64,000 nt of DNA, taken from a virus (taxonomy: Duplodnaviria > Heunggongvirae > Uroviricota > Caudoviricetes). This document shows positions 4,061 to 37,589 of the stretch, in pieces. The stretch is from positions 1-64,000 of the IMG/VR virus record IMGVR_UViG_3300011614_000002. One strand, 5' to 3'. The translations under genes were made by a program, and so were the position numbers. The notes beneath the pieces are model-generated. The model was not told the DNA's origin, made no database searches, and saw only the letters and a list, made by a program, of their open reading frames with translations. Each line of letters starts with the position of its first letter. Position 1 is the first letter of the stretch.

Positions 4061-4300
4061 TCAGTGGGTGTAGAACCAGAGGGCAATCAGTAATACCACC
4101 CCAGTGACAATCAGCTCAGCCGGCCTGACAGCGTCGAGGTTTCTCACCATGCGTTCACCAAGTTGGTGGCGATAGTGGTTGTGCATTGCAATCTGCGCCG
4201 GGGTGGCGCGGGTAGCTTGGGGAAGGGCGGTGCGGAAAAATTTCACTGAGCTTTTCTCCGGGTTGGGGGTTGGCAAGACGGAGGATGCTCTATTGATCAA
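4061..4300 (-). CDS. small membrane protein (start uncertain)
   Basis: C-terminal hydrophobic helix LIVTGVVLLIALWFY. The annotated start abuts the 18-mer operator at 4294-4310. Confidence 0.3.
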   Translation of the reverse strand: MINRASSVLPTPNPEKSSVKFFRTALPQATRATPAQIAMHNHYRHQLGERMVRNLDAVRPAELIVTGVVLLIALWFYTH

Positions 4301-4310
4301 ATATGATCAA
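4294..4310. promoter_or_regulatory. operator-like site TGATCAAATATGATCAA (copy 1)
   Basis: Direct and inverted TGATCAA repeat separated by ATA. Near-identical copies occur at 8585, 8828 and 37575. Confidence 0.6.
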
Positions 4311-4612
4311 GTGAATTTATCTAATACGGTTCGTTTACGGAATCCAATCGGAGGCGTTCCGTTAATCAGATAGCGTGCTATTGGTTGAATTGATGCGTGT
4401 CGTGACGGAACTATGGTGTCAACGAAATGACCCGAAGTCCCGGTCCCTACCGGGGTTTGACGCGGAACTGCCGGTAACTGGCGATGGTTACCAACTTATT
4501 TACGCAAATTTTCTGGTCAAACGTCGCAGGGGGCATCATCTGATACCTATTCTGTGGTAAAAAACGCTTACTCAACTCTCCTTTCCGAGCTGTGGCGGCT
4601 CATCAGTGTTGA

Positions 4613-4656
4613 GAGAACCCCGGGTGCAGGGATGCACCCGGGGTTCTGCATTTCTA
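4613..4656. terminator. Strong hairpin, candidate bidirectional terminator
   Basis: Perfect 14-bp inverted repeat GAACCCCGGGTGCA-GGGA-TGCACCCGGGGTTC with T-rich flanks. It lies just downstream of the minus-strand gene that ends at 4684. Confidence 0.6.
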
Positions 4657-4683
4657 GGAGGCGGATTTGATAGCTGGCTCCTA

Positions 4684-5763
4684 TTACGAAACGGCGACAG
4701 CCCTGTATTTTTCGGTCTCCAGCTCACCTTTCAGGTACGGCCTGAGCTCTTCGCGCGTGTACTTGCCCGCATGGTTGCGCTCACCGGTATAGCCGCTGTA
4801 GTTGGCCCGGAAGAACAGGTCCTCCTTCTTGCTGTAGATCAGATACAGCGGCTCGCTCTTGGGGAATAGCACGTCGCGCAGCTGGGCGGCGCGTTCGAAG
4901 TTCATGGCGTCGACAGCCTTGGCCATCTCCCTTTCCAGGCGCGCGCGGCGTTCGCGCTGGTTGCGCTTTACTCGCAGGTCACCCGGGCTGCTGACATAGA
5001 CCTTGCTGTGCCAGACGTTGTAGAGGGCGCTGTAGCGGCCAGTGACGATCATCCAGTTGCCGCCCAGGCAGTAGAGCGCGGTACCGGTGACGATTCGGCC
5101 GCTGTAGTCCTGGGCGTAGACCTGCATGCCATCCTCAATCACCTGGCCATCACCGGACTGCTGGGCGTCATTGGTGTACTCGGCGCGACCCAGCGCGGGG
5201 CGATAGTGCCCGGACGTGCGCTGGCGCTCCTGCACCGCTTCCAGGGCCGTGATGCCGCCGGCGTGCGGGCCGACCGTGGGCGTCTTACCCTGCAGCTGGT
5301 ACCCAGCGAAGACGTTGCACAGGTAGGTGCTGATGCGGCGCCGCGTCCGCTCCATCTCCAGGCGCAGCAGGTAGGGCATGTGCTGCTCCTTGTCGCGCTG
5401 GAAGCGGCCCCCGTGGTCAGGGCGATCGGGCGCGTTCACGTTCTGGAACATCTCCAGCTCGATGCAGCGGCCAGAAATGTTGAGCCGGGCCTGCAGGTCG
5501 CCCTTGCGGCACGCCCGATAGTCCTTGGCGATCAGGGCGTAGTTGGCCTCCATCTCCGGATCCAAGGTGACGGTCCAGCCCAGGCGGTTCAGCGTCTGGA
5601 CCACGCGGGCGAACACGTCGGTCTTGAAGCGCTTCTTCCAGATGTCGCCGGCTGCACCGGCCGGGAGCCCTTCTTCGCTGATGTACAGGCTGGCGTCGCC
5701 CCAGCGGATAGTGCCCGCACGCTGGATCAGGGTCGGTGTGTGGTCTTGGTGGGTGGTGGTCAT
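4684..5763 (-). CDS. hypothetical protein with C-terminal UVR-like motif (359 aa)
   Basis: Long ORF. The segment AVDAMNFERAAQLRD resembles a UvrB/UvrC UVR helix. The start has a GGAG Shine-Dalgarno and an ATGA overlap with the upstream ORF. Confidence 0.6.
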   Translation of the reverse strand: MTTTHQDHTPTLIQRAGTIRWGDASLYISEEGLPAGAAGDIWKKRFKTDVFARVVQTLNRLGWTVTLDPEMEANYALIAKDYRACRKGDLQARLNISGRCIELEMFQNVNAPDRPDHGGRFQRDKEQHMPYLLRLEMERTRRRISTYLCNVFAGYQLQGKTPTVGPHAGGITALEAVQERQRTSGHYRPALGRAEYTNDAQQSGDGQVIEDGMQVYAQDYSGRIVTGTALYCLGGNWMIVTGRYSALYNVWHSKVYVSSPGDLRVKRNQRERRARLEREMAKAVDAMNFERAAQLRDVLFPKSEPLYLIYSKKEDLFFRANYSGYTGERNHAGKYTREELRPYLKGELETEKYRAVAVS

Positions 5764-6161
5764 TGTGCTGCTCCGATCTCGCTCATCATCTGGCCCACGA
5801 CATAACCGGTGGCCTCCAGATCGGCCTGTGCCTGGCGGCCGATGACGTCCAGCTGCTCGCTGGGCAGGGTGAAACTGCGGGTACCGACCCCGGGGCTGTG
5901 CCGCGGGATCTCGATCAGCACGCCGGCCTTGGCCAGGCGCGCCAGCGTGCGCAGATTGCGTGGGGTGTCCTCGCCCAGGCTGAAGGAAAAGATCCGCACG
6001 AAACGCCGGCGATCAGCGTCCCAGGCCAGGAGCTTTCGGCGTCCACCCACGTAGTTTTCCAGCAGCCAGGACTTGGCCGCCCGGTACAGTGCATCGCGGA
6101 TCTGCGGCGGCACAGTGGCGGGGACCGCGGGCGGCGCGTCCTGCAGCAGCCTAGGCACCAT
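5760..6161 (-). CDS. hypothetical protein (133 aa)
   Basis: ORF translationally coupled (ATGA) to the downstream gene. Confidence 0.5.
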   Translation of the reverse strand: MVPRLLQDAPPAVPATVPPQIRDALYRAAKSWLLENYVGGRRKLLAWDADRRRFVRIFSFSLGEDTPRNLRTLARLAKAGVLIEIPRHSPGVGTRSFTLPSEQLDVIGRQAQADLEATGYVVGQMMSEIGAAQ

Positions 6162-6729
6162 GGGTCACCTCCTGGGCCGGCGCGTTTGCAATTGATTGCA
6201 CGGGCGCGGCGCGGCCTTCCCATAGCGATCGCTGGCGCGCGTCCCGCTCGGCACGGTCCTTCTCCAGGTCGGCCAGCATGTCGGGTACCGCGCGCAGGAA
6301 GTCTGCAGGCGAGTGCAGCCGGCGCAGGCTGATGAAGTCGAAATCCGGCTCCCCATCCAGCTCGATGTCGACGACCTCCAGGTAGTGGTCGCGCACCAGG
6401 CGGCGCAGGGAGTCCCACGCGGTGCATTCCTCCCACTCGGGCTCCATGTAGCCTTCCAGCGCACCAACCATGGGTGTGCCTGGCCAGGGGTAGATGTAGC
6501 GTTCGCTCAGGTGCACGACGGCATCGCCCCGGCGCGTGCGGTGCTCGATGTCACCCTTCCAGCCGGTGAATTGGGAGCTTCGCGAACGCCTCCAGTGCTT
6601 GCGATCGAAGCCGATCAGGTCTGTGTAGCTGTCACCGTCACCGGCCAGGAATTGCGAGCGATCGTCGCCCAGGGCGTGCAGCAGGGGTGCGGCGCGCTTC
6701 GACAGTTTCTTCAGGATGCGCAGGTTCAT
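6151..6729 (-). CDS. hypothetical protein (192 aa)
   Basis: ORF in the same operon with a short overlap to its neighbours. Confidence 0.5.
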   Translation of the reverse strand: MNLRILKKLSKRAAPLLHALGDDRSQFLAGDGDSYTDLIGFDRKHWRRSRSSQFTGWKGDIEHRTRRGDAVVHLSERYIYPWPGTPMVGALEGYMEPEWEECTAWDSLRRLVRDHYLEVVDIELDGEPDFDFISLRRLHSPADFLRAVPDMLADLEKDRAERDARQRSLWEGRAAPVQSIANAPAQEVTHGA

Positions 6730-6932
6730 GGCGCCTCCTGAACGAAAGGGGCTTCAGCAGCACAGCGCTGCTCGTGCCACTCGTTCATCGCGGCCAATGC
6801 GCGCAAGCGATCCGCGCGGTTCAAGGTCTGGAAGCAGTGGTAGGTGACAGCCCACGACGGACCGTCAGCCTGCATGCGGGAGCGCTCGCCCCAGATGGTG
6901 GCCTTGCCGGTGTTGGGTGCGCGCTTAGCCAC
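6726..6932 (-). CDS. hypothetical small protein (68 aa)
   Basis: ATGA-coupled ORF. Confidence 0.4.
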   Translation of the reverse strand: MAKRAPNTGKATIWGERSRMQADGPSWAVTYHCFQTLNRADRLRALAAMNEWHEQRCAAEAPFVQEAP

Positions 6933-8040
6933 GGCTCACCTCCACGCCGCCCTGGGCGCGCATAGCGGCGGCAGGCGGGGCTGTGTACCCACTGTGGGCG
7001 TCGGCGTTGTAGGCCAAGATGTCGGGCTCTTCTGCCAGCTCACCGATGATGTGGCGCACCTGGTCGGCTTCGTAGCGAACGCGGTCTGGGTATTCAGAGC
7101 GGGCAATGGTCAGGTGCGGACCATCCATCAAGCCGTCACCTTTGCGGTGAAGGATGGCGGTCCAGTTGGTCTTGCCGTTCGACTCAGGCATCGAGCCATA
7201 CCAGACGGTCAGCGCCAACGTCTCACCCGCTGCCACAGGCGGGGCGGTCCATAAGACGCGAACCGGCCACCCATGCCTCTTCTGATATTCGTAATACGCC
7301 TGCTTAGTTTCTATCCACTCGCCAGAAAGCCCCTTGTACTGATACACCAGCTCACCTGCAGCGGGCTGGGTGGCGAGGGCGGCGCGTAGACGGGCTATCT
7401 CGTCTGCCGCTTTGGTGACGGTCTCTTTATCCAGATGGTCCCAGCAATGGCTATTGCCGCGCTTGCCGTAGTTGAGCCCCATCGCACGCAGTCGCCATTC
7501 CATCGTGTCATCACCGGCATGCGCGCCCTGGGCTTCCTTCTCAGCCGTGCAGCCTGCGCACAATCCTGGTCCGCCGCACTTCATCACGACGCCATCGGCC
7601 CGCGGCGTTACATGTCCGTGTCCGGCCTCCTGCTGCTCGGCCTGGGCGTTGAACTCTTTCGCGTCGACTAGCTTCCTGGAGTAGTCCAGCAGTCGGCGCT
7701 CCCAGGGTTTCCCGACACCATCGTCATAGTTGAACAGGAAGCCGGCCACGATCCGGCGCATCTCCGCCAGCTGTGCCTGGGAGGATTGCAGCTCCGCGAG
7801 TACGGTGCGAAGCGTCGACTGAGTATGCTCTTGCCGGCTTCGGGCAGCATCCCGCTCCGCTTTCTCCCGCGCCAAGGCCGCACGCTGGGTCGTGTCGCGG
7901 GTGCGCAGGAATGCCTGAACGTTTTCGGGTGCGATATTGCTCAGCAGTGTTTCGAATTGCTCTTCGCTGATAGGTGCGGTGATCGTCATCGGTATCGTCT
8001 CGGTGTTCAACGGAACATGCCGGCGCGCAATGGCCGGCAT
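6925..8040 (-). CDS. hypothetical protein (371 aa, start uncertain)
   Basis: Long ORF with Cys cluster CGGPGLCAGC. No clean Shine-Dalgarno at either candidate start. Confidence 0.5.
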   Translation of the reverse strand: MPAIARRHVPLNTETIPMTITAPISEEQFETLLSNIAPENVQAFLRTRDTTQRAALAREKAERDAARSRQEHTQSTLRTVLAELQSSQAQLAEMRRIVAGFLFNYDDGVGKPWERRLLDYSRKLVDAKEFNAQAEQQEAGHGHVTPRADGVVMKCGGPGLCAGCTAEKEAQGAHAGDDTMEWRLRAMGLNYGKRGNSHCWDHLDKETVTKAADEIARLRAALATQPAAGELVYQYKGLSGEWIETKQAYYEYQKRHGWPVRVLWTAPPVAAGETLALTVWYGSMPESNGKTNWTAILHRKGDGLMDGPHLTIARSEYPDRVRYEADQVRHIIGELAEEPDILAYNADAHSGYTAPPAAAMRAQGGVEVSRG

Positions 8041-8057
8041 GGTGTTCTGCAGGGCGG

Positions 8058-8525
8058 TTACTCGGCGTCGGCGTTGTGCAGCTCTTCAGCTGCGCGCTTC
8101 AGGTCCAAGTGATCCCGCGGGCTTTGCAGGTCGTTGAACTGTCCCGTCACGACATACGCCGCGGCATCCACTCTCAAGGCGAAATTCTCAGCGGCGCGCT
8201 TTCGCTTGAAGCCATAGAGCTCTTCATCACCCGCGCGGCGCACGACACGCAGCTGACCGGTTTCATCGCGGCGCATGGCAACGTAGTAGGCAGGGTCGGG
8301 GGTGACGTCCTGATCGGGTAGATCCGCCGGCAAGCGCACCTCGGCCCAGCGATCGCCGCGCTCGATGACTGTGAGTAGGCCTTTGTCGGCCAGCGCGCGG
8401 ATCTCGGTGAACGTCTTGATCAGGCGATCGCCGCCGATCTGGACGGTCTTGCTCTGGCCTGGATTGGTGGACTGCTGGATTGAGCGCAGGATGCGCTGCT
8501 GCTTCTCGGTAAGCGATTTGCTCAT
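8058..8525 (-). CDS. LexA-N-terminal-like winged-helix DNA-binding protein, candidate phage repressor/regulator
   Basis: N-terminus LTEKQQRILRSIQ resembles the LexA DNA-binding domain. The gene sits directly next to the operator-rich control region. Confidence 0.5.
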   Translation of the reverse strand: MSKSLTEKQQRILRSIQQSTNPGQSKTVQIGGDRLIKTFTEIRALADKGLLTVIERGDRWAEVRLPADLPDQDVTPDPAYYVAMRRDETGQLRVVRRAGDEELYGFKRKRAAENFALRVDAAAYVVTGQFNDLQSPRDHLDLKRAAEELHNADAE

Positions 8526-8584
8526 TGGGTTGGCGCCCCTTGGAACGATTAAGCCGAATTGGCCTGATCATTCTAGGTTGCCTT

Positions 8585-8599
8585 ATCAAATATGATCAA
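8585..8599. promoter_or_regulatory. operator 18-mer TTATCAAATATGATCAAT (copy 2)
   Basis: Identical 18-mer to the copy at 37574-37591. Confidence 0.65.
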
Positions 8600-8669
8600 T
8601 ACGCTTGAGCAATTATGCCGGCTCGCTCAAATCGACCCGCGCGCCCGACTCGCCAGGGTGACCAGCCCC

Positions 8670-9170
8670 CAGTAACCGATTCGGGCAGGCACTCCCAATG
8701 CGTCGGTTGGGCTGCGGTAACCGAGGCCTAAAACAGCGCTGTAGTCAAGATGGGCGCGGGTTGTAGACGTGTCAGACCGGTGCCGGTTACCTGGCTGGTT
8801 ACTGCCCTGCAGCCGATCCCGGTAACCCTCAAATATGATCAACGCGCCTAGAGCCATCAGGGGTCGATGGGGCGAGTAACCGCATGGTAACCGGGCAGGT
8901 TTCCGACGAACGGCTAGAGCCATGCGGGGTCTTGCTCAATTCCGGTCAAAAGTAACCGGTAACCGGGAATCCCTAGACAGTAATAAGAAGGGATTGGGGC
9001 ATGTATAGAGTCAGCTCAGGTATGTGTGTGTTTATGTGGTTACTCTAGTTACTTCTTACTCATATTTGATAATAGATATAGATAGATAGAAGGGTTTAGC
9101 GGGATAGGTAGGGTAACCAAAAAGGTAACCAGGGCAGTAACTTAGGTAACCAGTAACCATGATGGCAGAC
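8670..9170. repeat. Array of about 14 direct (A/G)GTAACC repeats within an 800-bp non-coding region with an AT-rich core
   Basis: GGTAACC/AGTAACC recurs at about 8672, 8718, 8786(rc), 8798, 8823, 8876, 8886, 8958, 8965 and 9113-9160. The third and fourth 18-mer operator-like sites (8828-8842 and 9062-9073) are embedded in it. Confidence 0.7.
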
Positions 9171-9321
9171 GTACTGGCACCGGTCATCGGACAAACTATT
9201 AAGGCCCCCTTAACGATAGTTAAGAATCATCGTCACAAATGCTGAAAAGTTCCCCCCGACACTGAGGAACCCGTAAAATTCAACCTCGTTAGTAGGTAGT
9301 GATGCAGTTGGAGTCGGAGAC

Positions 9322-9858
9322 GTGGAATACTTCACATATCCAGAGCTGCCCGATCGGCTGATTTTTCAATGCAGCCGGCATAAAGCCGCTCTTCAGGTCG
9401 AAGCCTGCAAGGGTATGTGGACCGAAGCAAACGGTCGGACGCCACCCGATCGCTTGGCCCTGTGCCGCAATTGCCCCCTGGGGGCGCAGCACGCTGGGCT
9501 ACAGTCGTTCCAAGTCTCCAAACTGAAAGGAACGGGAATCTGTTCGAGATGCCACCGCGGTGGCATGCGCCTGGTACGGCAAGACATCTGTGTCAGCTGC
9601 TGGAATCGTGAACGGGAAGTGCTGGTTGGCAGGAACGCCAAAGGCAAGCCCCCGAAGCATCACCAGCCAGTTGATCGCCGGACCATCCGCATTCTCAACG
9701 GGGAAGAGATCATCCTCGTAGAACGCCCCCACTCCACCAGCACCGACGAACTGATTGTCGCGGCTCTTCGCGACAGCACTCGCCAGGTGTTCTTCGGGTT
9801 CCAATCCAAGCGTCCTCCTGCTGCCGCGCAGGCTCCCATTCAGGGAAGCCTGTTCTAA
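9322..9858 (+). CDS. Cys-rich putative zinc-binding protein (178 aa, GTG start)
   Basis: CxxC pairs (CRNCP, CSRCH, CVSCW). GGAG Shine-Dalgarno 4 nt before the GTG. Confidence 0.45.
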   Translation: MEYFTYPELPDRLIFQCSRHKAALQVEACKGMWTEANGRTPPDRLALCRNCPLGAQHAGLQSFQVSKLKGTGICSRCHRGGMRLVRQDICVSCWNREREVLVGRNAKGKPPKHHQPVDRRTIRILNGEEIILVERPHSTSTDELIVAALRDSTRQVFFGFQSKRPPAAAQAPIQGSLF

Positions 9859-9879
9859 ACAGGAAAGGAGATTGACGTA

Positions 9880-10293
9880 GTGACTGTGCACCTTATATCC
9901 GACCGTTCTGATGTAACCGATTCCACAAAAAAAGGACCCGTCGCAGCCCTGCGCCTAGTACCCGCTCAGCCGGCCCCTGTTGCGGCCCCGCTGTGGCACA
10001 TGGAATCGCATGTTTGCCGTGTTTGTTTCGCCCGGATCGTCTCCCGCCCAACTGAAGCAGGCCTGGTCGAATACCAGTGCACCAACTGCGGTGCTCAGGC
10101 TGAAGCGGCCGAAGTTTCGACCCTGTGTGCCTGCGGCGTGAAGATCCGCAAGAGCAATGCCCAGGGCCGGCACGGTGGGCAACTGGTAGACGCTGGCATT
10201 CGGTGCATGGCCAATCCCAAGCCGACGCCTGAGTTCCCGTCCCTATTCGTGGCGACGGAAGTGCCCCAGGAACAGGTCGCCCGTCGCGCCTGA
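9880..10293 (+). CDS. zinc-ribbon protein (137 aa, GTG start)
   Basis: CRVC...CTNC...CAC motifs. AAGGAG Shine-Dalgarno 9 nt upstream. Confidence 0.45.
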   Translation: MTVHLISDRSDVTDSTKKGPVAALRLVPAQPAPVAAPLWHMESHVCRVCFARIVSRPTEAGLVEYQCTNCGAQAEAAEVSTLCACGVKIRKSNAQGRHGGQLVDAGIRCMANPKPTPEFPSLFVATEVPQEQVARRA

Positions 10294-10368
10294 CCTGCAA
10301 GCGCGCGGATCGGCTGGCCGCCCCAGCTGCCCCGCGCCGTCGTGCCCGCCCAACACTGAAGGTCCATC

Positions 10369-10743
10369 ATGCCGATCAACATCGTTCAGATCAGCGGCCC
10401 CGCCGCGTCCGGAAAAACTCTGCTTGCTGATGCAGTCGCGCTGGGAATGCGCGATCTCAACTACAAACACCTGCGGGCCAGCGGCAACTCCACCGCCCGG
10501 GGCATCGCCATGGAGATCCAGGCAGGCTCCTACCACACGATCATCGTCGACGACTGTTCCGAATCGCTGCTGGCCAAGCTGGCCGCCATCGATGTTCCCC
10601 AGCGGGTGACCATCTATGCGATCACCCAGAAGACGTTTTTGATACCGGCGCCCGAGCCCAAATTAGGGAATCTGATTGTTAGTCTGATGGCGAAGCGTCT
10701 GAAAGGCCTGCTATCACTGGGATCCTGGGGTCGCGCTGCCTGA
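10369..10743 (+). CDS. small P-loop protein (124 aa)
   Basis: Walker A-like GPAASGKT near the N-terminus. Confidence 0.5.
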   Translation: MPINIVQISGPAASGKTLLADAVALGMRDLNYKHLRASGNSTARGIAMEIQAGSYHTIIVDDCSESLLAKLAAIDVPQRVTIYAITQKTFLIPAPEPKLGNLIVSLMAKRLKGLLSLGSWGRAA

Positions 10744-12237: not shown

Positions 12238-12330
12238 AAATCCCTTCCTTTATATAGCTGCTCAGCAGGTCGTGACGCGATTGTCGTCTGACCGCGCCGG
12301 GCGGATCCCGGTACGTCCCTGGGATCCGCT

Positions 12331-18197: not shown

Positions 18198-18880
18198 TGG
18201 GTACGGTCACGAACGTTCCGCAGATCGAGCTGTGGCCCCTGGCGGCCCTGGTGCGCTACGCGCGCAACAGCCGCACCCACTCCCCGCACCAGATCGGCGA
18301 GATTAAGGCCTCGCTGGTGGAGTTCGGCTTCACCAACCCTATCCTGGCCGATGACATGGGCATCGTGGCCGGCCACGGCCGCAGCATGGCCGCGGAAGAG
18401 CTCTACAACGCCGGCAAGCAACTCAAATTCCCTGGCGACATCCCAATCCCCATGGGCTTGGTGCCTGTCATCAACTGCACGGGCTGGACCGCCCAGCAGC
18501 GGCGCGCGTACATCATCGCGGACAACAAGATCGCCATGAACGCCGGCTGGGACATGGAGCTGCTGCGCCTGGAAGTGGTGGAGCTCGACGAGGCCGGCTT
18601 CGACCTGGACCTGTTGGGCTTCAACGGTGACGAGCTGGACGAGCTGCTGGGGGAGGGGACCGACGCCCTGGGCGAGATGCCCGAACTGCCGGACGGCGAT
18701 CGCGAGCCTTTCCAGCAGATGACCTTCACCCTGCACGATGAGCAGGCCGACTTGGTCAAGCGCGCGCTGGCGGTGGCCAAGGGCCTGGGCGAATTCATCG
18801 ACGCCCCGAACGAGAACAGCAACGGCAACGCCCTGGCGCGGATCTGCGAGCTGTTCCTGCAGGAGCAGGGCGAGGAATGA
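18197..18880 (+). CDS. ParB-like nuclease (ParB/Srx fold) domain protein
   Basis: GxxRxxA-type motif IVAGHGRSMAA. Acidic C-terminus. Confidence 0.65.
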   Translation: MGTVTNVPQIELWPLAALVRYARNSRTHSPHQIGEIKASLVEFGFTNPILADDMGIVAGHGRSMAAEELYNAGKQLKFPGDIPIPMGLVPVINCTGWTAQQRRAYIIADNKIAMNAGWDMELLRLEVVELDEAGFDLDLLGFNGDELDELLGEGTDALGEMPELPDGDREPFQQMTFTLHDEQADLVKRALAVAKGLGEFIDAPNENSNGNALARICELFLQEQGEE

Positions 18881-19647
18881 CGTACACCGCCAAGGACATC
18901 CAGGTCGCGCCGATCAAGAAGGCCGACGCTGACGCGCTGGTCAAGCGGATCCACTACAGCGGGTCGGTGGTGATGAACTCCCAGCTGAACCTGGGCGTGT
19001 TCCTGAACGGCCGGCTGGAGGGTGCCATGCAGTTCGGCCCGCCGCTGGACAAGCGCAAGGTCGGCGCCCTGGTCACCGACACGCCCTGGAACGGCTTCCT
19101 GGAGCTCAACCGGATGGCGTTCAGCGAGCGCCTACCGCGCAACAGCGAGTCCCGCGCCATCGCCGTGGCCATGCGCCTGATCCGCAAGCATTACCCGCAC
19201 ATCCAATGGGTCGTATCTTTTGCTGACGGCTCCCAGTGTGGTGATGGCACCATTTATCGAGCGTCGGGATTTGTCCTGACCAGCATCAAGAAGAATCGCA
19301 CCGCCTGGCGCAACGCCGCCGGGCACGTCGTCAGTCGCGTGACGATGGAGAAGGGCAAGAACATGGTCGCCGGCAAATCCAGCATGGCGTCCTACCGCGA
19401 GGCGGGATACGAGCCGATCGAAGGCTTCCAGCTGCGGTACATGTACTTCCTGGACCCCAGCGCGCGCGGCCGGCTGACGGTGCCGGTGCTTCCCTTCAGC
19501 GCCATCGAAGAGCAGGGCGCGGGGATGTACCGGGGTGAAGCAGTTTCGCGTGGTAAGCAGGCGACGACCGGGTCCACCGGTTCGGCGGCGGGGCAGAACC
19601 GACCACCACGCTCCAATTCCCTCCCACCGGAGACCTCCAATGCGTGA
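18877..19647 (+). CDS. hypothetical protein, possibly a DNA-modification partner of the ParB-like protein
   Basis: ATGA-coupled to the ParB-like gene. No firm motif was recognised. Confidence 0.45.
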   Translation: MTYTAKDIQVAPIKKADADALVKRIHYSGSVVMNSQLNLGVFLNGRLEGAMQFGPPLDKRKVGALVTDTPWNGFLELNRMAFSERLPRNSESRAIAVAMRLIRKHYPHIQWVVSFADGSQCGDGTIYRASGFVLTSIKKNRTAWRNAAGHVVSRVTMEKGKNMVAGKSSMASYREAGYEPIEGFQLRYMYFLDPSARGRLTVPVLPFSAIEEQGAGMYRGEAVSRGKQATTGSTGSAAGQNRPPRSNSLPPETSNA

Positions 19648-23548: not shown

Positions 23549-23592
23549 CTCAACTTGAGATTCACCATAGGGTGACGTATAGTGTGCGTCAT
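23549..23592. promoter_or_regulatory. Two palindromes upstream of higB, candidate HigA operators
   Basis: TCTCAA-C-TTGAGA and TGACG-N9-CGTCA. Confidence 0.5.
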
Positions 23593-23616
23593 GCGGTGCA
23601 GTATCGAAGGCATGGA

Positions 23617-23904
23617 ATGCGGATTATCAGCGAGGCCAGGATTCGAGAAGCGAAGGTGAAATGGCCCCAGGCCGCCACCGCGCTGGAAGCCTGGCGACAG
23701 TTGTTCAAAAACAACTCACCGAAGGACTTTGCGCAGCTCAAGCAGCTGAATCCAGCCGCCGACAAGTACAAGGACCTCTACATCCTGGACGTCGGCGGTA
23801 ACAAGATCCGGATCATCGTCACCATTCACTTCAAGGTGGACACGCTGTACATCCGGCACATCTTGGATCACAAAGAATACGACGCGGGTAAGTGGAAGAA
23901 CTGA
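23617..23904 (+). CDS. higB: HigB-like (RelE/ParE superfamily) type II toxin
   Basis: Small basic protein. Gene order is toxin first, then an HTH antitoxin. AAGG Shine-Dalgarno. Confidence 0.65.
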   Translation: MRIISEARIREAKVKWPQAATALEAWRQLFKNNSPKDFAQLKQLNPAADKYKDLYILDVGGNKIRIIVTIHFKVDTLYIRHILDHKEYDAGKWKN

Positions 23905-23906
23905 CC

Positions 23907-24332
23907 ATGAGCGCATTACTCAAGCAAGCGATTGATCACTGGGAATACGTCGCCCCGATCGCGAACAAGCCGACCAACGACGAAGAGTATCAGCGTGCTG
24001 TATCAGCGCTGGACTACCTCCTGGACCGTGTCGGCGAAGACGAGAACCACCCCTATAGTGGCCTGATCAAGCTGCTGTCTGACGGGATCGAAGCCTATGA
24101 CGCCGATACCTACCCAGACGAGCCTGTAGAGCCGCGCGACATGCTGGCTTTTCTGATGGAACAGCACGGGCTGCGCCAGGGTGACTTGCCAGAAGTAGGC
24201 TCGCAGGGCGTGGTGTCCGAAGTGTTACGTGGCAAGCGGGAACTTAATCTGCGCCAGATCAGAGCGCTGGCAGTACGGTTTCAGGTTTCGCTTTCCACGT
24301 TTATCCCTGATGTACGTATCTCAACGCACTGA
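23907..24332 (+). CDS. higA: HigA-like antitoxin with C-terminal XRE-type HTH
   Basis: C-terminal HTH segment LRQGDLPEVGSQGVVSEVLRGKRELNLRQIRALA. Starts 3 nt after the higB stop. Confidence 0.65.
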   Translation: MSALLKQAIDHWEYVAPIANKPTNDEEYQRAVSALDYLLDRVGEDENHPYSGLIKLLSDGIEAYDADTYPDEPVEPRDMLAFLMEQHGLRQGDLPEVGSQGVVSEVLRGKRELNLRQIRALAVRFQVSLSTFIPDVRISTH

Positions 24333-26484: not shown

Positions 26485-26520
26485 ATATTTGATAAGCTCA
26501 ATGCTAGATATTTGATAATT
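26485..26520. promoter_or_regulatory. Two direct ATATTTGATAA half-operators upstream of the C5-methyltransferase
   Basis: TATATTTGATAAG at 26485-26497 and GATATTTGATAAT at 26507-26520. Same core as the 18-mer operator. Confidence 0.55.
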
Positions 26521-26564: not shown

Positions 26565-28523
26565 ATGACTTCGTTCCACAAGCCTGCACCGTTCAATTTC
26601 AAGACCCAGTACGGCCTTGGGTTCAATCCCCAGGATGATGAGATTGTCGTCGACTTCTTCTGCGGCGGCGGTGGCGCCGGTACCGGTCTAGAAATGGGCC
26701 TGGGCCGTACCGTCACTGTGGCCAAGAACCACAGCCCCGCGGCGATCAGCATGCACACCGCCAACCACCCCACTGCACGGCACTTCACCACCGATGTGTT
26801 CGAAGGGGATCCCGACACCGAATGCGGCGGGCGCCCCGTAGGCTGGTTCCACATGAGTCCGGATTGCACGCACCACAGTCAAGCCGCTGGCGGTCAGCCG
26901 CGGAAACGCGAGATCCGCAACCTATCGTGGATTGGGTTGAAATGGGCGGGGATGAAGCGCCCGCGCGTTATCAGCCTGGAGAACGTCAAGCAGATCCTGG
27001 CCTGGGGTCCCCTGATTGCGAAGCGCGATAAGGCTACCGGTCGTGTGGTGAAGGTCGACGGTACCGTAGCCGACGCCGGCGAGCGCGTGCCGGTCCACCA
27101 GCAGTTCTTGGTGCCGGATCCGAAGCGCAAGGGCCAGACCTGGCGCCGCTTCGTGCAGCTGCTGCAGGGCCTGGGCTATCAGGTGGAGTGGCAGGTAGGC
27201 CGCGCTTGCGACTACGGCGCGCCCACCAGCCGCGAGCGCCTGTTCATGATCGCCCGTTGCGACGGCCAGCCGATCATCTGGCCGGAACCGACGCACGCCA
27301 AGGTGCCGGCCAAGGGCCAGAAGCCATGGCGATCGGCCTCCGAGTGCATCGACTGGAGCCTGCCCTGCCCCAGCATCTTCGACCGGAAGAAGCCGTTGGC
27401 AGCAGCTACCCTGCGCCGTATCGCAAAAGGCATGCACAGGTTCGTCCTGGACGCTGCTGATCCTTTCATCGTGCCAATCGCCAACTGGTCGCAGGATGCG
27501 ACCCAATCTGCAGCAGACCCGCTGCGTACCGTCACCGCCTGGCCGCGTGGCGGTAGCTTTGCGGTTGCCAGCCCGATCATTGCCCCGGCGACGCATCAGG
27601 GTAGCGACCGGGTGAACGACCCATTGCAGCCCCTGCCCACTGTCACCTGCGCTAACCGAGGGGAGCAGATGCTGGTGAGCCCCACGCTGGTATCGGTCGG
27701 TTATGGCGAGCGGAACGGCCAAGAGCCACGCGTGCCAGGACTGGATAAGCCGCTGGGAACGGTAGTGGCCGGCGGAATCAAACATGCTGTGGCCGCCGCG
27801 CACCTGGTCAAATTCCGCTATGACTCGGCCGGCGCCGCTGCCGATGAGCCGATGCCGACCATCACCAGTGGTGGCAACTGCCAGCGCCCCGCTGGCGCGG
27901 CCCATGCCATGGGCATCGCCACCGCATTCATTGAGCAGGCCAACGGCGGCTTCAATGCAACGCCTGCACAGAGCGCAGAGCGCCCGATGACGACGGTGAC
28001 CAACTCAGGAAGCCAGCAGCGACTGGCAGTGGCCTCGCTGGCGACGCTGCGCCGCAACTGCACCGGGCAACCCATCACCGGCCAGGTGCCCGCGATCACC
28101 GCCGGCGCCGAACACCATGCGCTGGTGGAGTACCAGCTGGCGCCAGAGGTTGAAGCCGGCGCTCTGCAGGTGGCGGCCTTCCTGATGAGCTACTACGGCA
28201 CCGACAACACCAGCCGGCCGGACGACCCCTCGCCTACGGTCACCACCAAGGATCGCCTGGCGCTGGTCACCGTTACGATCCGGGGTACGCCCTACGTCGT
28301 AGTGGACATCGGCCTGCGCATGCTGCAACCCCGCGAGCTGTACCGCGCGCAAGGCTTCCCAGACGACTATCGCATTGACCATGGGCATGACGGCCGCAAG
28401 TTCACGAAGTCAGAGCAGGTGCATATGTGCGGTAATAGCGTCTCCCCGCCCCATATGGCGGCGATCGCCCGCGCGAACGACCCATGGCAGGTTCGGTCTT
28501 TAGACATGGTGACAGCGGCGTAG
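26565..28523 (+). CDS. DNA (cytosine-5)-methyltransferase, large target-recognition region
   Basis: Motif I DFFCGGGGAGTG, motif VI ISLENV, motif VIII RERLF, motif IX/X RELYRAQGFPDDY, plus GNSVSPP. The catalytic region reads SPDC rather than the canonical PCQ. Confidence 0.8.
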   Translation: MTSFHKPAPFNFKTQYGLGFNPQDDEIVVDFFCGGGGAGTGLEMGLGRTVTVAKNHSPAAISMHTANHPTARHFTTDVFEGDPDTECGGRPVGWFHMSPDCTHHSQAAGGQPRKREIRNLSWIGLKWAGMKRPRVISLENVKQILAWGPLIAKRDKATGRVVKVDGTVADAGERVPVHQQFLVPDPKRKGQTWRRFVQLLQGLGYQVEWQVGRACDYGAPTSRERLFMIARCDGQPIIWPEPTHAKVPAKGQKPWRSASECIDWSLPCPSIFDRKKPLAAATLRRIAKGMHRFVLDAADPFIVPIANWSQDATQSAADPLRTVTAWPRGGSFAVASPIIAPATHQGSDRVNDPLQPLPTVTCANRGEQMLVSPTLVSVGYGERNGQEPRVPGLDKPLGTVVAGGIKHAVAAAHLVKFRYDSAGAAADEPMPTITSGGNCQRPAGAAHAMGIATAFIEQANGGFNATPAQSAERPMTTVTNSGSQQRLAVASLATLRRNCTGQPITGQVPAITAGAEHHALVEYQLAPEVEAGALQVAAFLMSYYGTDNTSRPDDPSPTVTTKDRLALVTVTIRGTPYVVVDIGLRMLQPRELYRAQGFPDDYRIDHGHDGRKFTKSEQVHMCGNSVSPPHMAAIARANDPWQVRSLDMVTAA

Positions 28524-28591
28524 GTGAGCCAACTAGCGCGGCTACGGAGCTGGTCCCCGAATTTGGGGACCGGACTATTTAGGATTGTTCG

Positions 28592-28795
28592 ATGAGTGAC
28601 ATAAATCCCATCAAGGCAGGCCATCGAACCCAGGCGGGTCGCCATCAAGCGGTCGTCTGGGAGGATGGCTATGTTGCCGCGATGGCTGGCCTGGGCTATG
28701 AATGCCCGCACCCGCTAGCCACCGTTGAAGCGATCCATTGGACCGATGGCCATGGCGAGGCCATGAAGACGCTGCGGTTCCTGCTGGATGCGTAG
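28592..28795 (+). CDS. hypothetical small protein (67 aa)
   Basis: AGGATTG Shine-Dalgarno. Confidence 0.35.
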   Translation: MSDINPIKAGHRTQAGRHQAVVWEDGYVAAMAGLGYECPHPLATVEAIHWTDGHGEAMKTLRFLLDA

Positions 28796-28801
28796 CTGAA
28801 G

Positions 28802-29809
28802 CTATAGCTCAGTTCGACTGAGCAGCTCGGCAGTTCCATCAGGAAACAGCTCTAGGTCGCAAACTTCAGCCTTGAAACCATGAGACTTGAAGTATTGGCC
28901 GATTTCTTCGAAATACTCCCTGTTCTCCGTAAAATTACACAAGTTGATAAGCGGGATTGCCGGCTTTGTCAGAGAAAATCCAGGCATTTCAGCCAGAACA
29001 CCTTCCTGAGAATGACTGAGCAGTACACCTACATTTCCCACGTTCAGCATGGTTTGGTAGGAGTCCACTCCGTTCACATTTGGCCACCTTCTCTTAAGGC
29101 CAGTCGCAATTGCGCTCAGAATTCCAATCTCTTCGAGATACAGCAGCTGACCGAATGGGAAGCCTGCATTCTCTAAGGCTCGGTTTTGGGTATCGTCTTG
29201 GAGCCTGAAGATAAACCCTTGCAGGACAAAGGGCGCAAGCTTGGCTATGAGTTCTGCATCTTCGGTGCTTAGATTCCGGATAAGGTCCAGGGTCCGCAAG
29301 CTATGGCTTCCAGGTGCTTTTACCTCGCCTGCGAGCAGCCGACCCCATATCTGCTGTAGGTCTTCAGCCGAAACCTCTCCTGCGTAATCTCGCCAACGCC
29401 GGATCCAGTCGCCGTCCACCGTGCGCTCTGGAGCCGGCGATGGATCCTGATGTAACTCTTCCTCAGCGCGCAGCAAGGCCTTAGCAACGTTTACTTCCCT
29501 GCGCAGGAGTTCATTGGTGTGCTGGTCTTGAACGATCGCAGGCAGCTCATCCAAATCGAATTCGGGCTCCAGTCGTTCCTCCACGCGAGCAATCCTGCGA
29601 TGGCGCGCTAGCTGGAAATCGGCCAGGGTCTTCTCACCACTCAGGATCTGTGCCGCATCACGCTCCCCCTGAGCCTCGATCCGCTTCGCGTCTGCCCGGC
29701 CATAGGCGTCGCGTCGCATCTGACCTGGTCTAAGCAAGGCGCCAACGCCGTTATCCGCGCAGGTCCTCCAAAGCGTCTGAACAAGCTCAGAAAAATTCCA
29801 ATCACCCAT
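28802..29809 (-). CDS. hypothetical protein (335 aa) in a low-GC island; candidate defence/moron gene A
   Basis: GC roughly 52%. No TM segment. No recognisable catalytic motif. Confidence 0.55.
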   Translation of the reverse strand: MGDWNFSELVQTLWRTCADNGVGALLRPGQMRRDAYGRADAKRIEAQGERDAAQILSGEKTLADFQLARHRRIARVEERLEPEFDLDELPAIVQDQHTNELLRREVNVAKALLRAEEELHQDPSPAPERTVDGDWIRRWRDYAGEVSAEDLQQIWGRLLAGEVKAPGSHSLRTLDLIRNLSTEDAELIAKLAPFVLQGFIFRLQDDTQNRALENAGFPFGQLLYLEEIGILSAIATGLKRRWPNVNGVDSYQTMLNVGNVGVLLSHSQEGVLAEMPGFSLTKPAIPLINLCNFTENREYFEEIGQYFKSHGFKAEVCDLELFPDGTAELLSRTEL

Positions 29810-29879
29810 CGGCTCTCTCCCAGGTGTCGACTTGTTCTATGACCACAGGAAACTCGCTTTTCTCGCTGTACGTGGATGG

Positions 29880-30344
29880 CAAAAATCCTAATCGGAACGT
29901 GCACAGCAGTGAAGTGGCCTAATTTCAGTGCAAGTGCTTGATAGCATTATAATATTTTTTTGAATTACTCTTGATTTAGTGTTTTTAAATGTTAAAACAT
30001 AAATACCCGAGGCTAATTATTATGATTTGTCGTTGTAGGGGGAATAACATAAAGAGAAAATAAACATGAGAAAATTACTTAAATATATAAGCATTGCAAT
30101 CACATTAGCAGTAACCGCATCTATCCCATCGTCTACAGTTCAACAATCTACGTCAGCGAAAGCACAGCAGGTGCTAGCTGCACCCGCTGCTTTAGGCGGA
30201 GGATGATAGCTCTTGGCGGCAGTTATGCCGCTCGGTCCGTCTCTCAGACGAATGTTACGGCGCCAGAGTCAGCGGTAAGCGTCCAAGCCATCGTATGGGA
30301 CTATGGCCAACGTGAGACGATGACTACCTTTTGATTACATAAAG
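29880..30344. other. AT-rich (about 30% GC) non-coding segment inside the low-GC island
   Basis: Extreme local GC drop. A 47-codon signal-peptide ORF (30066..30206, plus strand) lies inside. Confidence 0.6.
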
Positions 30345-31196
30345 CTACCAAAGCGGCTTTCTGACCTTAGTCTCTATTGGCTCCATGCGTATTTCATAAA
30401 GAGCAGCCAACACAGGAGCACGAACCCTCATGTCCGTGCCGAACCAGGAATTGTTCGCCATCTTTGCAGTGCTTTTTCTATCAAAATAATACGATTTAAA
30501 AAGATATACAGTGCTCGAATGTGTTAACAACGTGGTATGTGTCATACCCTTTAGAAAGAAACTTTGCTCTTTTAGTACAATTGAGGCGACCTCGTAATCC
30601 CACAGTAGGTCTCGGGTCCCTGGCATAGCCTGCGGCATATCTATTATTATTTTATTTGCAACTTCGAAGCGCTGTCTGTCTTCAATAATGTCGGCAACTT
30701 TAATTTCTGACAATTTTGCTGATAAATCGTCCAAAAACATATTCTGCCAGTGACTACCGACGATTCTTCTCTCTATACCTTGCGGAAGATGCCCATAGAA
30801 ATCGGCAAAATCCGTGCCTAAATTCGCTAAACGCCCCAACACCTTGAACAGATCTTCGAGAAACGTCTTGGATGTTGGATCAAGCGAGCGTATAGACTCT
30901 GACATCTTAGGTATCAGGGAGTCGGCCTCTTTCGCAATGTATGTGATTCTGGCCGTTTCTCTCGCTTTTCTGTACTGATACACGGCGAACACAAACGTTA
31001 TCACCGTAACAGCTTGACCTAGAAATTGAGCAAATTCATTCAGTCCGCTTTTTGTTACTGGCACGTAGACGACTACGGCGACAAATACAATGAACGCGAG
31101 TGAGGCAAGGCAAACAGGTAGAAGTCTAGGGTTTAGGAATTGGACGTCTAGGTAATTACCTAATCTCACTAGGTATAAGCGAATTGAATTCCACAT
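30345..31196 (-). CDS. 2TM membrane protein with cytoplasmic C-terminal domain (283 aa); candidate defence/moron gene B
   Basis: GC roughly 45%. TM helices LLPVCLASLAFIVFVAVVVYV and VTVITFVFAVYQY, followed by a soluble domain of about 200 aa. Confidence 0.6.
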   Translation of the reverse strand: MWNSIRLYLVRLGNYLDVQFLNPRLLPVCLASLAFIVFVAVVVYVPVTKSGLNEFAQFLGQAVTVITFVFAVYQYRKARETARITYIAKEADSLIPKMSESIRSLDPTSKTFLEDLFKVLGRLANLGTDFADFYGHLPQGIERRIVGSHWQNMFLDDLSAKLSEIKVADIIEDRQRFEVANKIIIDMPQAMPGTRDLLWDYEVASIVLKEQSFFLKGMTHTTLLTHSSTVYLFKSYYFDRKSTAKMANNSWFGTDMRVRAPVLAALYEIRMEPIETKVRKPLW

Positions 31197-31372
31197 AATT
31201 CACGCTGAATCCTTCCGGGCAATCCTTATAGCGATTCTAGCCTGAAGTCCCAAGACTTTGAGATAGATAGTGGGCGTAGCTGCAGCCTTGGCTTTCGTGC
31301 AGCATCAGGTGCGCACACGGAGATGAGCGTCGGGTGCCCTACCCAGCTCGCCTTCGCATAGTATTGTCCATG

Positions 31373-31717
31373 TCACCGGCCGCAATACCCATCGTACCGA
31401 TCGCCAGGCTCCTGCAGCTCCATCGGCATGTCTTCCCGCGCCATGTAGAACGGCACCCAGCCCGTCCAGCCGCCATTGGGCAAGAACTTCGACCGGATCC
31501 ACGTCTGCGCCTTGGCCTCGAAGGCGACGTCGCCACAGACAAAGCCAGAGGCCTTTCCTTCCCGCACATTGCGGACCTTCACTGAGTCGGGATTGCCCAG
31601 TTCGGACATCTCGCCCGCAGCGTCTTTAGCTTTGGATTCGAGCACGGGATCCGAGAACCCCATCAGGGCGAACGCTGCACCGCAGATGACAACTACGGCG
31701 CCCAGGGACTTCTTCAT
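31373..31717 (-). CDS. secreted/periplasmic small protein (114 aa)
   Basis: Signal peptide MKKSLGAVVVICGAAFALMGFS. GAGG Shine-Dalgarno 6 nt upstream. Divergent from the giant gene. Confidence 0.5.
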   Translation of the reverse strand: MKKSLGAVVVICGAAFALMGFSDPVLESKAKDAAGEMSELGNPDSVKVRNVREGKASGFVCGDVAFEAKAQTWIRSKFLPNGGWTGWVPFYMAREDMPMELQEPGDRYDGYCGR

Positions 31718-31804
31718 GCGCATCCTCTGCGTGGTTTGAAAACGGCGCGGATGGTACCAGAGCGCCTCGGCGCCGGTGCCCCGTCGTGACGCCAACATGG
31801 CGCC

Positions 31805-36241: not shown

Positions 36242-36713
36242 TGTGAACATGCAGGACGGCCTGGCGGCCGCTGCAGCTGGCACCGAACGGCACAACTACC
36301 TGGGCGATGCCCAGGTGGTGAACCAGCTGGTCCGCAATTTCTTCGCTGGCGTCTTCTCCGAGCGCGCCAAGTTCCACCAGGGCGGCAACGATGAAGGCGC
36401 CACGGCGGCCATCGAGCAGCTGTGCCGCCACTACGCATCGATCTTCATGGGCGAGAGCGGTGGCTACGTCGCGCAGCCCTGGAACAGCCCCCATCGTCTG
36501 GGCATCTTCCTGCGCGTGGTGACGCCAGACGTGAACGACTACCCCACGCCGGCCGAGGCCTATTTCAACTTCCTGGCCCTGCAGGCGCTGGAAGCCGCCA
36601 TCGCCCTGGAAGAGGGCCATATGACGGATGCCGAAGTGCAGGCCGGCATGACCGAAGTCGTGGAAGACGCTGTGGCCGTGCTGCTGGGCCAGAAAGCCGG
36701 TGCCCAGGCATGA
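36225..36713 (+). CDS. hypothetical protein overlapping the 3' end of the giant gene; candidate immunity/partner
   Basis: AAGGGG Shine-Dalgarno 6 nt upstream of the ATG at 36225. The stop is ATGA-coupled to the Nudix gene. Confidence 0.5.
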   Translation: MDNRLDVNMQDGLAAAAAGTERHNYLGDAQVVNQLVRNFFAGVFSERAKFHQGGNDEGATAAIEQLCRHYASIFMGESGGYVAQPWNSPHRLGIFLRVVTPDVNDYPTPAEAYFNFLALQALEAAIALEEGHMTDAEVQAGMTEVVEDAVAVLLGQKAGAQA

Positions 36714-37546
36714 GCCGCCGGGTCCTGCTGTGCAAGGCGCACGTGAAAGGCCACGCCCGCAAGGATGGCACCTACGTGAAGCCCTACGACACCAAGGCGC
36801 CCACCGCGGCGCCCCAGGCTGTGCACCACCATCCGCGGGCGAATGACCAGGGCGAGCCGGTCGAGGTCAAGCAGCCCAGCCATGCCAGCGCGCCGAGCAC
36901 CTGGCACAGCGCCGGGGCCGTAGCGACCTTTCTGCCTGACGGCGACGTGCCGCATACCCTGAACGGCATCCCGCTGACCACCTGGCGCGACCACCCCAAG
37001 ACCAACGATGGCTGGGAGTTCACGGACGGCATCAACGACGACCTGGACGAACCGCACATGACGCTGCCCAAGGGCAAGTACGCGGCCAGCGGCGTGGCGA
37101 TCGTCGAGCCCGACGGCCGGGTCTGGCTGATCTGCCCGACGAACCAGTTCGGCGGCTACAAGGCGAGCTTCCCCAAGGGCACGGCCGAGCCTGGCCTGTC
37201 CCTGCAGGCCAACGCCCTGAAGGAGGCCTTTGAAGAGTCCGGCCTGAAGGTCGAGATCACCGGCCTGCTGGGTGACTACGAGCGCACCACGTCCAAGGCC
37301 CGCATCTACCTGGCGCGTCGCACCGGCGGCACGCCAACGGCCATGGGCTGGGAGAGCCAGGCGGTCCAGCTGGTGCCCAAGACGCAGCTCTACGACCACC
37401 TGAACATGTGGTCGGACCATGGCATCGCCGAAGCGCTGGGCGCGGGACCTGCCCCCAAGAAGCCTGCCCCTGCGCTGGCAGTACCGGGCAAGATCGCGCA
37501 GAAACCTACCGGAACCACCGGCGGTTACCAAGGAAATCTATTCTAA
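36710..37546 (+). CDS. Nudix hydrolase
   Basis: Nudix-box-like segment GGYKASFPKGTAEPGLSLQANALKEAFEESGL (KEAFEESGL corresponds to REUxEExGU). Confidence 0.6.
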   Translation: MSRRVLLCKAHVKGHARKDGTYVKPYDTKAPTAAPQAVHHHPRANDQGEPVEVKQPSHASAPSTWHSAGAVATFLPDGDVPHTLNGIPLTTWRDHPKTNDGWEFTDGINDDLDEPHMTLPKGKYAASGVAIVEPDGRVWLICPTNQFGGYKASFPKGTAEPGLSLQANALKEAFEESGLKVEITGLLGDYERTTSKARIYLARRTGGTPTAMGWESQAVQLVPKTQLYDHLNMWSDHGIAEALGAGPAPKKPAPALAVPGKIAQKPTGTTGGYQGNLF

Positions 37547-37574
37547 TTTTTCCTTAGACCTGTCTTGCCTCTTT

Positions 37575-37589
37575 ATCAAATATGATCAA
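37575..37589. promoter_or_regulatory. operator 18-mer TTATCAAATATGATCAAT (copy at the adenine-methyltransferase operon)
   Basis: Identical to the copy at 8584-8601. Confidence 0.65.

Follow-up and report, generated by a model that had tools for sequence, protein, structure and literature searches.

The 64,000-nucleotide stretch analyzed here (positions 1 to 64,000 of IMG/VR record IMGVR_UViG_3300011614_000002, referred to below as the window) derives from a tailed phage of the Caudoviricetes, and the element of interest is an 18-bp near-palindromic motif that lies in non-coding gaps ahead of several of its operons. The G+C content of the phage sequence is 64%, and the window was 99.98% identical to an 87-kb Logan contig, the flank of which encodes an integrase, an exonuclease, a helicase, and SSB. 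Considering these flanking genes, together with window genes homologous to the portal, capsid, and tail sheath genes of relatives, the sequence indicates a temperate Pseudomonas myophage of ∼88 kb. Among cultured phages, it is related to Touem01, Jeremy, and Dolphis of Pseudomonas and, at a greater distance, to Bordetella phage PHB04; a 178-amino-acid (178-aa) marker protein showed 47 to 61% identity among the cultured relatives, and a megablast search of the 4- to 12-kb region against phages gave no match. In addition to a primase and a terminase (Table 1), products of the window include an AntA antirepressor, a Mom-family protein, a C5-methylase, and a DUF4942/MTS methylase.

An exact 18-mer, TTATCAAATATGATCAAT, was found at 8583 to 8600 and again at 37573 to 37590, confirming a repeat reported in the initial annotation, the coordinates of which were one base too high. 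Allowing up to three mismatches added 4294 to 4311/4292 to 4309 and 9055 to 9072, with 0.00 matches expected from shuffled sequences, and the half-site ATATTTGATAA was matched six times with at most one mismatch (4294, 8583, 9062, 26485, 26508, and 37573) versus 0.09 times expected. Variants previously placed near 4294 to 4310 and 8828 to 8842 and a half-site placed at 9062 were recovered (sites 4293 to 4310, 8825 to 8842, and 9056 to 9073), as were two half-sites upstream of the C5-methyltransferase gene, the first at 26485 and the second at 26508 rather than 26507; compared with the full site, one of these two has 1 base inserted. The octamer TCAAATAT occurred seven times in the 64 kb, each time as part of a motif copy, and every window copy lay in a non-coding gap. 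A position weight matrix (PWM) trained on 28 sites, all from relatives and none from the window, assigned 16.8 to 34.1 bits to the copies at 4293, 37572, 9056, 8582, and 8825, whereas the top score in 20 shuffles was 15.3 bits. Moreover, two more copies occur outside the window in the same phage, one beside the integrase gene and the other 29 bp upstream of an 89-aa gene at the head of the replication operon. As had been proposed, one shared cis-element stands at the heads of several transcription units, including the leftward operons at 4.3 kb (4246 to 2712, headed by a 61-aa open reading frame [ORF]) and 8.5 kb (8525 to 4684, with the start codon of a 155-aa gene at 8525), the rightward 9322 operon, the C5-methyltransferase gene (ATG at 26565), and a 116-aa gene (ATG at 37623) that is followed by the DUF4942/MTS methyltransferase gene at 37985 to 39667.

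Table 1. Motif copies, associated promoter elements, and selected genes in the 64-kb window (scores are from the PWM built on relatives)
Feature	Position	Strand	Remarks
Toprim primase	2-2683		Carried in the window
Best copy, TTGATCAAATATGATCAA	4293..4310	-	34.1 bits; 46 bp upstream of the GTG (4246) of the 61-aa ORF
155-aa protein	8058..8525	-	Repressor candidate of the initial annotation; not LexA, not conserved with the motif
-10 box TAGAAT	8570..8575	-	18 bp downstream of TTGATC; invariant in the near-relative alignment
Full site, minus strand reading TTGATCATATTTGATAAG	8582..8599	-	26.1 bits; kept in near relatives
Extra palindromic half-site, TTGAGCAA	8605..8612		12 bp from the 8582 full site; partly kept in the alignment
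Half-conserved copy, ACCCTCAAATATGATCAA	8825..8842		16.8 bits; within the GGTAACC repeat field
Weak copy, TTGCTCAATTCCGGTCAA	8932..8949		11.9 bits, within the shuffle range; conserved block in the four-way alignment
Copy, TTACTCATATTTGATAAT	9056..9073	+	26.6 bits; upstream of the rightward 178-aa operon (9322-9858)
Two half-sites, ATATTTGATAA	26479..26519	+	At 26485 and 26508, 23 bp apart
Full site, TTTATCAAATATGATCAA	37572..37589	+	33.7 bits; 76-bp gap between the NUDIX and 116-aa genes
5′-UTR hairpin GGCCATC...GATGGCC	37596..37620	+	-16.6 kcal/mol, z -3.7
GpA-type terminase	40899-43508		Carried in the window

Across relatives, the consensus was the near-palindrome TTGATCA-WATW-TGATCAA (7-4-7, 18 bp). 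In the PWM, T5 C6 and G13 A14 were invariant and T1, T2, A7, A9/T10, A17, and A18 nearly so, while positions 8 and 11 were A or T, giving a dyad with a degenerate WATW center; the ideal site, TTGATCAAATTTGATCAA, consists of two 8-bp palindromes spaced by one helical turn. When the window was compared with its near relative L072, the center was inverted in both leftward promoters (ATATTT versus AAATAT; window 4293 to 4310 and 8582 to 8599 versus L072 14189 and 9926) and the arms were unchanged, which is how an uncontacted spacer separating two half-sites should behave. This inversion is a concerted two-base change at two loci, for which quasi-palindrome template switching or gene conversion among the copies could account. 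The initial annotation had also assigned two Dam-type GATC sequences to the site and suggested methylation-sensitive control, neither of which held up: the exact 18-mer holds one GATC, and only the 4293 copy has two. Ten genomes together contained 64 sites scoring 16 bits or more, of which 12 had two GATC, 26 had one, and 26 had none, and PWM position 3 was G in 30 of 56 (54%). Because 26 of the 64 sites are without GATC, this tetramer is not part of the conserved signal, and Dam-dependent control, of the type seen at Mu mom or pap, is not a feature of the family.

The initial annotation had overlooked that the motif is itself part of a promoter. A consensus scan of 4000 to 9400 returned a single σ70-like match, namely, TTGATC (8599 to 8594) separated by 18 bp from TAGAAT (8575 to 8570), and since this promoter contains TTGATC, the motif supplies its −35 box. 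Considering 62 sites from the window and relatives, the spacing from TTGATC to TAnnnT was 18 bp in 22, with each other spacing accounting for at most 7, and 23 promoters from the window and relatives could be aligned with TTGATC exactly 18 bp before a TAnnnT −10 box. In this commonest arrangement, the site spans about −36 to −19 and the −10 box reads TAnAAT; conservation did not stop at the −10 box but took in the transcribed start (CCATCAA...) as well as an anti-Shine-Dalgarno hairpin. Other copies, assigned by eye, appear to abut the −10 box or to cover it and/or the spacer. For instance, before the 116-aa gene, the site ends 3 to 8 nt from the hairpin in the 5′ untranslated region (5′-UTR) in the window, L029, Jeremy, L078, L079, and L081, which obliges the −10 box to overlap the second arm. 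By inspection, the 26485/26508 half-sites supply TTGATA (26489 to 26494) and GATAAT (26514 to 26519), 19 bp apart; the 9056 copy ends in a −10-like GATAAT and lies within a 60-bp invariant block of the near-relative alignment, and no −10 box was seen at the usual distance from the 8825 copy.

In the hairpin at the 37572 copy, the only evident one at a window copy, the Shine-Dalgarno and start region of the 116-aa gene is base paired. At the same spot, relatives (L029, L054, and L078 to L085) carried hairpins whose arms differ in sequence, and similar anti-Shine-Dalgarno hairpins (GCTCCAT...ATGGAGC) followed the promoters in L061, L063, L067, and Touem01; the order of promoter and then stem-loop between small variable genes was clear in L061, L062, L067, and Touem01. 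A covariation test of the hairpin on a MAFFT alignment was weak, as the loops do not align. In addition, a shared block, TTAGATAAATTCA, lies upstream of the 4293 site (4313 to 4325) and of the site in the exonuclease/89-aa divergent region, where it recurs beside the diverged site (17338 to 17350 in L069). In the window, this block lies within a 370-bp non-coding stretch (4311 to 4684) downstream of a UVR-motif gene, and TTAGATAA also occurs before the 89-aa homolog of ECML-606-1.

The symmetric motif was strictly intergenic and promoter embedded, and its positions were conserved. Absence of the sites from relatives had been named in the initial annotation as grounds for abandoning the idea; they were found at syntenic places instead. 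In a four-way alignment of near relatives over the 800-bp control region, the copies at 8582, 8825 (one half), 8932, and 9056 formed conserved islands, with GGTAACC repeats filling the intervals between them and the surrounding intergenic region diverging; the TTGATCATATTT half of the 8825 copy was kept in L072/L074/L075 and L067. Among the complete genomes, not all of which were used in PWM training, Touem01 carried 10 sites of at least 18 bits and Jeremy 9 sites of at least 14 bits, all of them intergenic in the deposited annotations, while PHB04 had 13 matches of at least 12 bits (9 of these at least 16 bits), representing weaker copies in the same places. The equivalent places comprised the flank of the integrase gene, the gap separating the exonuclease gene from the small gene at the head of the replication operon, the main divergent control region, the intervals of the leftward accessory cassettes, and the upstream sides of the 116-aa/DUF4942 pair and of the portal gene. 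An integrase-adjacent copy was present in the window phage, Jeremy, Touem01, and PHB04; syntenic copies preceded the 116-aa gene in L029, Jeremy, Touem01, L078, L079, L080, and L081; and a site lay 29 to 35 bp upstream of the 89-aa gene in the window phage, Touem01, and Jeremy and 89 bp upstream in PHB04. No such motif was found in the enterobacterial branch (ECML-606-1, with 35 kb examined, and L065, L066, and L068).

With slightly more confidence than doubt, we read the 18-mer as a dyad operator embedded in σ70-type early/accessory promoters and mediating their coordinated repression. This operator reading is based on the dyad, the free center, the conserved second arm, the variable register, and the copies without standard geometry; moreover, the varying distance to the −10 box is more easily reconciled with occlusion than with an activator of fixed geometry. 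On sequence grounds, a protein probably binds the motif, and its binding may repress. In such a mechanism, the first hexamer, TTGATC, would serve as the −35 box with a TAnAAT −10 box 18 bp on, so that the site would occupy about −36 to −19, and a dimeric DNA-binding protein sitting there would exclude RNA polymerase. Occupancy would switch off at least nine units together, including integrase, exonuclease/recombination, replication, and two leftward accessory operons, and likewise the 178-aa operon, the C5-methyltransferase gene, and the 116-aa/DUF4942 methyltransferase pair. The earlier idea of a repressor common to several operons was thus upheld as regards the shared element, whose dyad fits an operator, and not as regards a LexA-like binder.

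Several observations weigh against an operator. The information content of the 18-mer in the 23-promoter alignment is inflated, the sites having been selected by PWM, and the hexamers at 4293, 9056, 26485/26508, and 37572 were assigned by eye and not called by the promoter scan. TTGATC and TATGAT resemble promoter hexamers, and recognition by RNA polymerase could explain part of the conservation. None of the candidate binding proteins examined went with the 18-mer across genomes, and no CI, Cro, or LexA-type repressor was recognizable across the window and the 14 kb flanking it on the left. Furthermore, the recognition helix of the 89-aa protein is kept in Escherichia coli phage ECML-606-1, which is motif free over 35 kb, and the window phage lacks the AraC-like and AlpA-like regulators that its relatives carry.

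The main rival, possible though in our estimation rather unlikely, is that the motif is the extended consensus of the strong early promoters of the clade, a −35 box with an AT-rich spacer, which host σ70 RNA polymerase would read by itself and which would have spread as homologous promoter cassettes through duplication and mosaic recombination, much like T4 early promoters and PeSL (promoter-early stem-loop) cassettes, with no dedicated regulator involved. The 18-bp spacer to the −10 box is fixed in 22 to 23 copies, and conservation that continues to the transcribed start and hairpin suggests cassettes of common descent, which sit between variable gene blocks in the mosaic leftward region. Such an account also accommodates the lack of a cognate repressor among the proteins examined and the enterobacterial relatives examined, which are motif free yet keep the 89-aa and 178-aa proteins (and the HU-like protein in ST4 and the Yersinia phage). 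However, G13, A14, A17, and A18 mirror the −35 arm at −26 to −19, where σ70 does not read, and the dyad symmetry is left unexplained. The 18-bp geometry is missing at 8825, at 37572, and at the syntenic sites ahead of the 116-aa gene, all of which are nevertheless conserved, and the register relative to the −10 box varies.

Activation rather than repression appears very improbable. Lambda CII sites (TTGC-N6-TTGC) occur at PRE, PI, and PaQ, and the motif could analogously be a direct repeat, TTGA-N6-TTGA, straddling the −35 region, at which a bound phage activator would turn these promoters on, that of the integrase gene among them. The two 8-bp palindromes one helical turn apart in the ideal site, the copy at the integrase gene in the window phage and the three complete relatives, and the suboptimal 18-bp spacer are all compatible with an activator. 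TTGATC with TAGAAT or TACAAT is, however, already a fair promoter, the distance to the −10 box differs from copy to copy, and no Phage_CII match was obtained among the Pfam-scanned proteins. It seems at least as improbable that a nucleoid protein or global regulator of the host, common to Pseudomonas and Bordetella, tunes these early promoters. The motif is far better conserved than the adjacent small phage proteins and persists across two host orders, and none of the phage proteins examined tracks it, as a host factor would lead one to expect; against this, the consensus sequences of IHF (WATCAANNNNTTR), Fis (15-bp core), FNR/Anr (TTGAT-N4-ATCAA), Fur, and LexA showed no fit to the motif by eye. 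The host DnaA consensus did not fit by eye either.

Least probable of all, and very unlikely in our view, is the model of the initial annotation, in which the 155-aa product, considered LexA-like, acts as single repressor with Dam (GATC)-sensitive binding, given that the protein has no LexA domains, that three complete genomes with the motif encode no homolog of it, and that many sites are devoid of GATC. Its gene lies directly downstream of a full site, in a position suited to autoregulation, and its N-terminal part may fold as a winged helix. The low-confidence AlphaFold (AF2) model had an overall predicted local distance difference test score (pLDDT) of 61 and of 67 to 85 over residues 1 to 65, where a helix-strand-helix-hairpin was predicted; strands and helices were modeled at low confidence in the C-terminal half. 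Foldseek gave weak matches only (E of 0.03 to 0.2, none with E ≤0.001), mostly to winged-helix proteins including Fur and PerR. No Pfam family was matched at E ≤0.01, including LexA_DNA_bind (PF01726) and S24 peptidase (PF00717), nor was any PHROG family, nor any PDB sequence at E ≤10. Among 5.8 billion proteins, only four clusters, nearly identical to one another, represented the 155-aa protein; L059 encodes one further homolog, 37% identical, with which the N-terminal domain is shared. Jeremy, Touem01, and PHB04 encode no homolog, although their motif copies (9, 10, and about 9 sites, respectively, of at least 16 bits) include one at the corresponding promoter, and none was seen in the sequence retrieved from L061, L063, and L067 (20.5, 17.0, and 10.4 kb), which all bear the motif there. 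This absence from motif-keeping relatives, together with the narrow distribution and the lack of LexA features, rules the protein out as the conserved binder, and it is unlikely to be what binds the 18-mer.

The other candidates examined were the 89-, 178-, and 137-aa proteins and HU-like, TraR-like, AraC-like, and AlpA-like proteins, and none of them, nor the 155-aa protein, tracked the motif. The 89-aa protein, one of the proteins common to all motif-bearing genomes, has an invariant helix-turn-helix-like segment, LTDVCREANISRATPNRW, kept in Jeremy, Touem01, and PHB04, and its single-sequence AF2 model consisted of two long helices only; its candidacy was weakened by ECML-606-1, which keeps the helix (SRSTPDRW) and has no motif even in the region upstream of its own 89-aa gene. 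Scans of viral contigs for the 155-aa and 89-aa proteins gave no match. The AraC-like and AlpA/excisionase-like regulators were set aside as well, being kept in Jeremy, Touem01, and PHB04 and absent from the window phage, as was the HU-like protein, which also occurs in Aeromonas phage ST4 and Yersinia phage fHe-Yen8-01, two genomes outside the motif scan, and shows no link to the motif. The 178-/137-aa pair is kept in every relative, including the motif-free ones, and more likely goes with the phage-specific heptamer repeats (GGTAACC, GGTATCC, and GGAACGG).

Dispersed operators that couple many promoters to one regulator are exemplified by P1 C1, RK2 Kor, and the lambdoid operators. The window phage, with at least nine motif loci, one operator sequence at many unlinked operons, and an integrase, would constitute a new member of this kind in an uncharacterized phage clade, and the motif is previously undescribed: searches of the accessible literature for the motif and for Dolphis gave no mention of it, and the Mecenats66 paper does not mention promoters or operators. 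P1 is likewise a ∼90-kb temperate myophage with one short operator at the promoters of many unlinked operons (for replication, DNA modification, and accessory genes), which a single protein thereby controls jointly; its operator, however, is an asymmetric 17-mer rather than a 7-4-7 dyad, and no C1 homolog or other named repressor family was seen among the Pfam/PHROG-scanned proteins, with no search aimed at C1 having been made. The lambdoid OR/OL operators of CI/Cro share with the motif a 17- to 18-bp dyad with a degenerate AT-rich center inside σ70 promoters and weaker auxiliary copies nearby (here at 8605, 8825, and 8932), but they are clustered in one immunity region and vary between heteroimmune phages, whereas the present sequence occupies at least nine loci, is common to phages with 50 to 60% protein identity, and comes with no recognizable CI/Cro gene. 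The KorA/KorB operators of the IncP plasmid RK2 are also palindromic, lie in many promoters in varied registers, and serve coordinated repression, but RK2 is a plasmid with identified repressors, and neither sequence similarity nor a Kor homolog was found here. T4 early promoters and their PeSL cassettes resemble the promoters of L061, L062, L067, and Touem01 in combining a high-information consensus that extends beyond the hexamers with a following stem-loop at the borders of small variable cassettes; they have no dyad and no repressor, whereas the symmetric second arm and variable register seen here argue for an added binding function. Finally, the gp71 stoperators of mycobacteriophage L5 are similarly many copies of a short site in intergenic gaps, but they are asymmetric, orientation dependent, and mostly outside promoters, in contrast to the symmetric and mostly promoter-internal copies described here.

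The motif provides a ready map of the early regulon for ∼90-kb temperate myophages (Touem01, Jeremy/Dolphis, PHB04, and metagenomic relatives), and the 18-mer is a precise bait for the regulator of the group. A more far-reaching proposal, which we hold to be rather unlikely, is that a clade-conserved regulator outside the CI/Cro/LexA/C1 families joins at least nine promoters in one regulon (among them those of integrase, recombination, replication, and several DNA modification genes), that the promoter-operator-hairpin unit acts as the recombination joint for exchange of accessory cassettes, and that these phages form an unusually broad homoimmune supergroup, the last point being suggested by an operator common to Pseudomonas and Bordetella phages with ∼50% protein identity. 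If there is one binder, a lysogen carrying one member could repress relatives that superinfect it, across species boundaries, and the C5-methylase and DUF4942 methylase genes would be switched together with integration and replication. If the motif serves as a promoter only, it would still define the promoter consensus of the clade for a high-GC host, useful for annotation and for synthetic biology in Pseudomonas.

The control region itself (8526 to 9321, 800 bp) contains GGTAACC/AGTAACC heptamer repeats that are kept in near relatives and replaced by other repeats in other phages (GGTATCC in PHB04, GGAACGG in ECML-606-1, and TTTCGTCACC in Jeremy). These heptamers resemble iterons and would serve a phage-specific protein, perhaps the adjacent 178-/137-aa pair, or an origin. 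The pair, encoded at the head of the rightward operon (178 aa, 9322 to 9858; 137 aa, 9880 to 10293), is Cys rich and kept in all relatives, over a range that extends from phages of Pseudomonas to those of Morganella; no Pfam or PHROG family was matched, and none of the 56 clusters contained a named homolog.

A second upstream motif, AAGTCGTGAC(N3)AGCAT/ACCAT, had 11 copies with at most one mismatch in the window compared with 2.5 expected, at sites including 3732(−), 12267, 13595, 15371, 20123, 25940, 40875, 45697(−), and 46811(−)/46855(+). It lies 25 to 45 nt before the start codons of rightward middle/late genes, including those of the terminase and portal, and was also present in L058, L029, Jeremy, and L069; from its sequence, it looks like a distinct promoter class unlike σ70.

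The set of DNA modification genes is unusually rich, combining the Mom-family protein (E of 1.6e-54) with the C5-methylase and the DUF4942/MTS methylase; the Mom-family gene and a HigB/HigA-like toxin-antitoxin pair were found at 18877 to 19647 and 23572 to 24332. A low-GC island at 28000 to 31800 (51 to 57% versus 64%) carries minus-strand genes, one of them encoding a DUF2806 protein, and sits where Jeremy, Touem01, and PHB04 have an AraC-family regulator; the island is probably a cassette for accessory or defense functions that the phage acquired. In addition, the Rfam small RNA Proteo-phage-1 was detected on the minus strand at 45531 to 45613 (59.9 bits versus a gathering score of 42), in a low-GC stretch of the terminase-portal interval.

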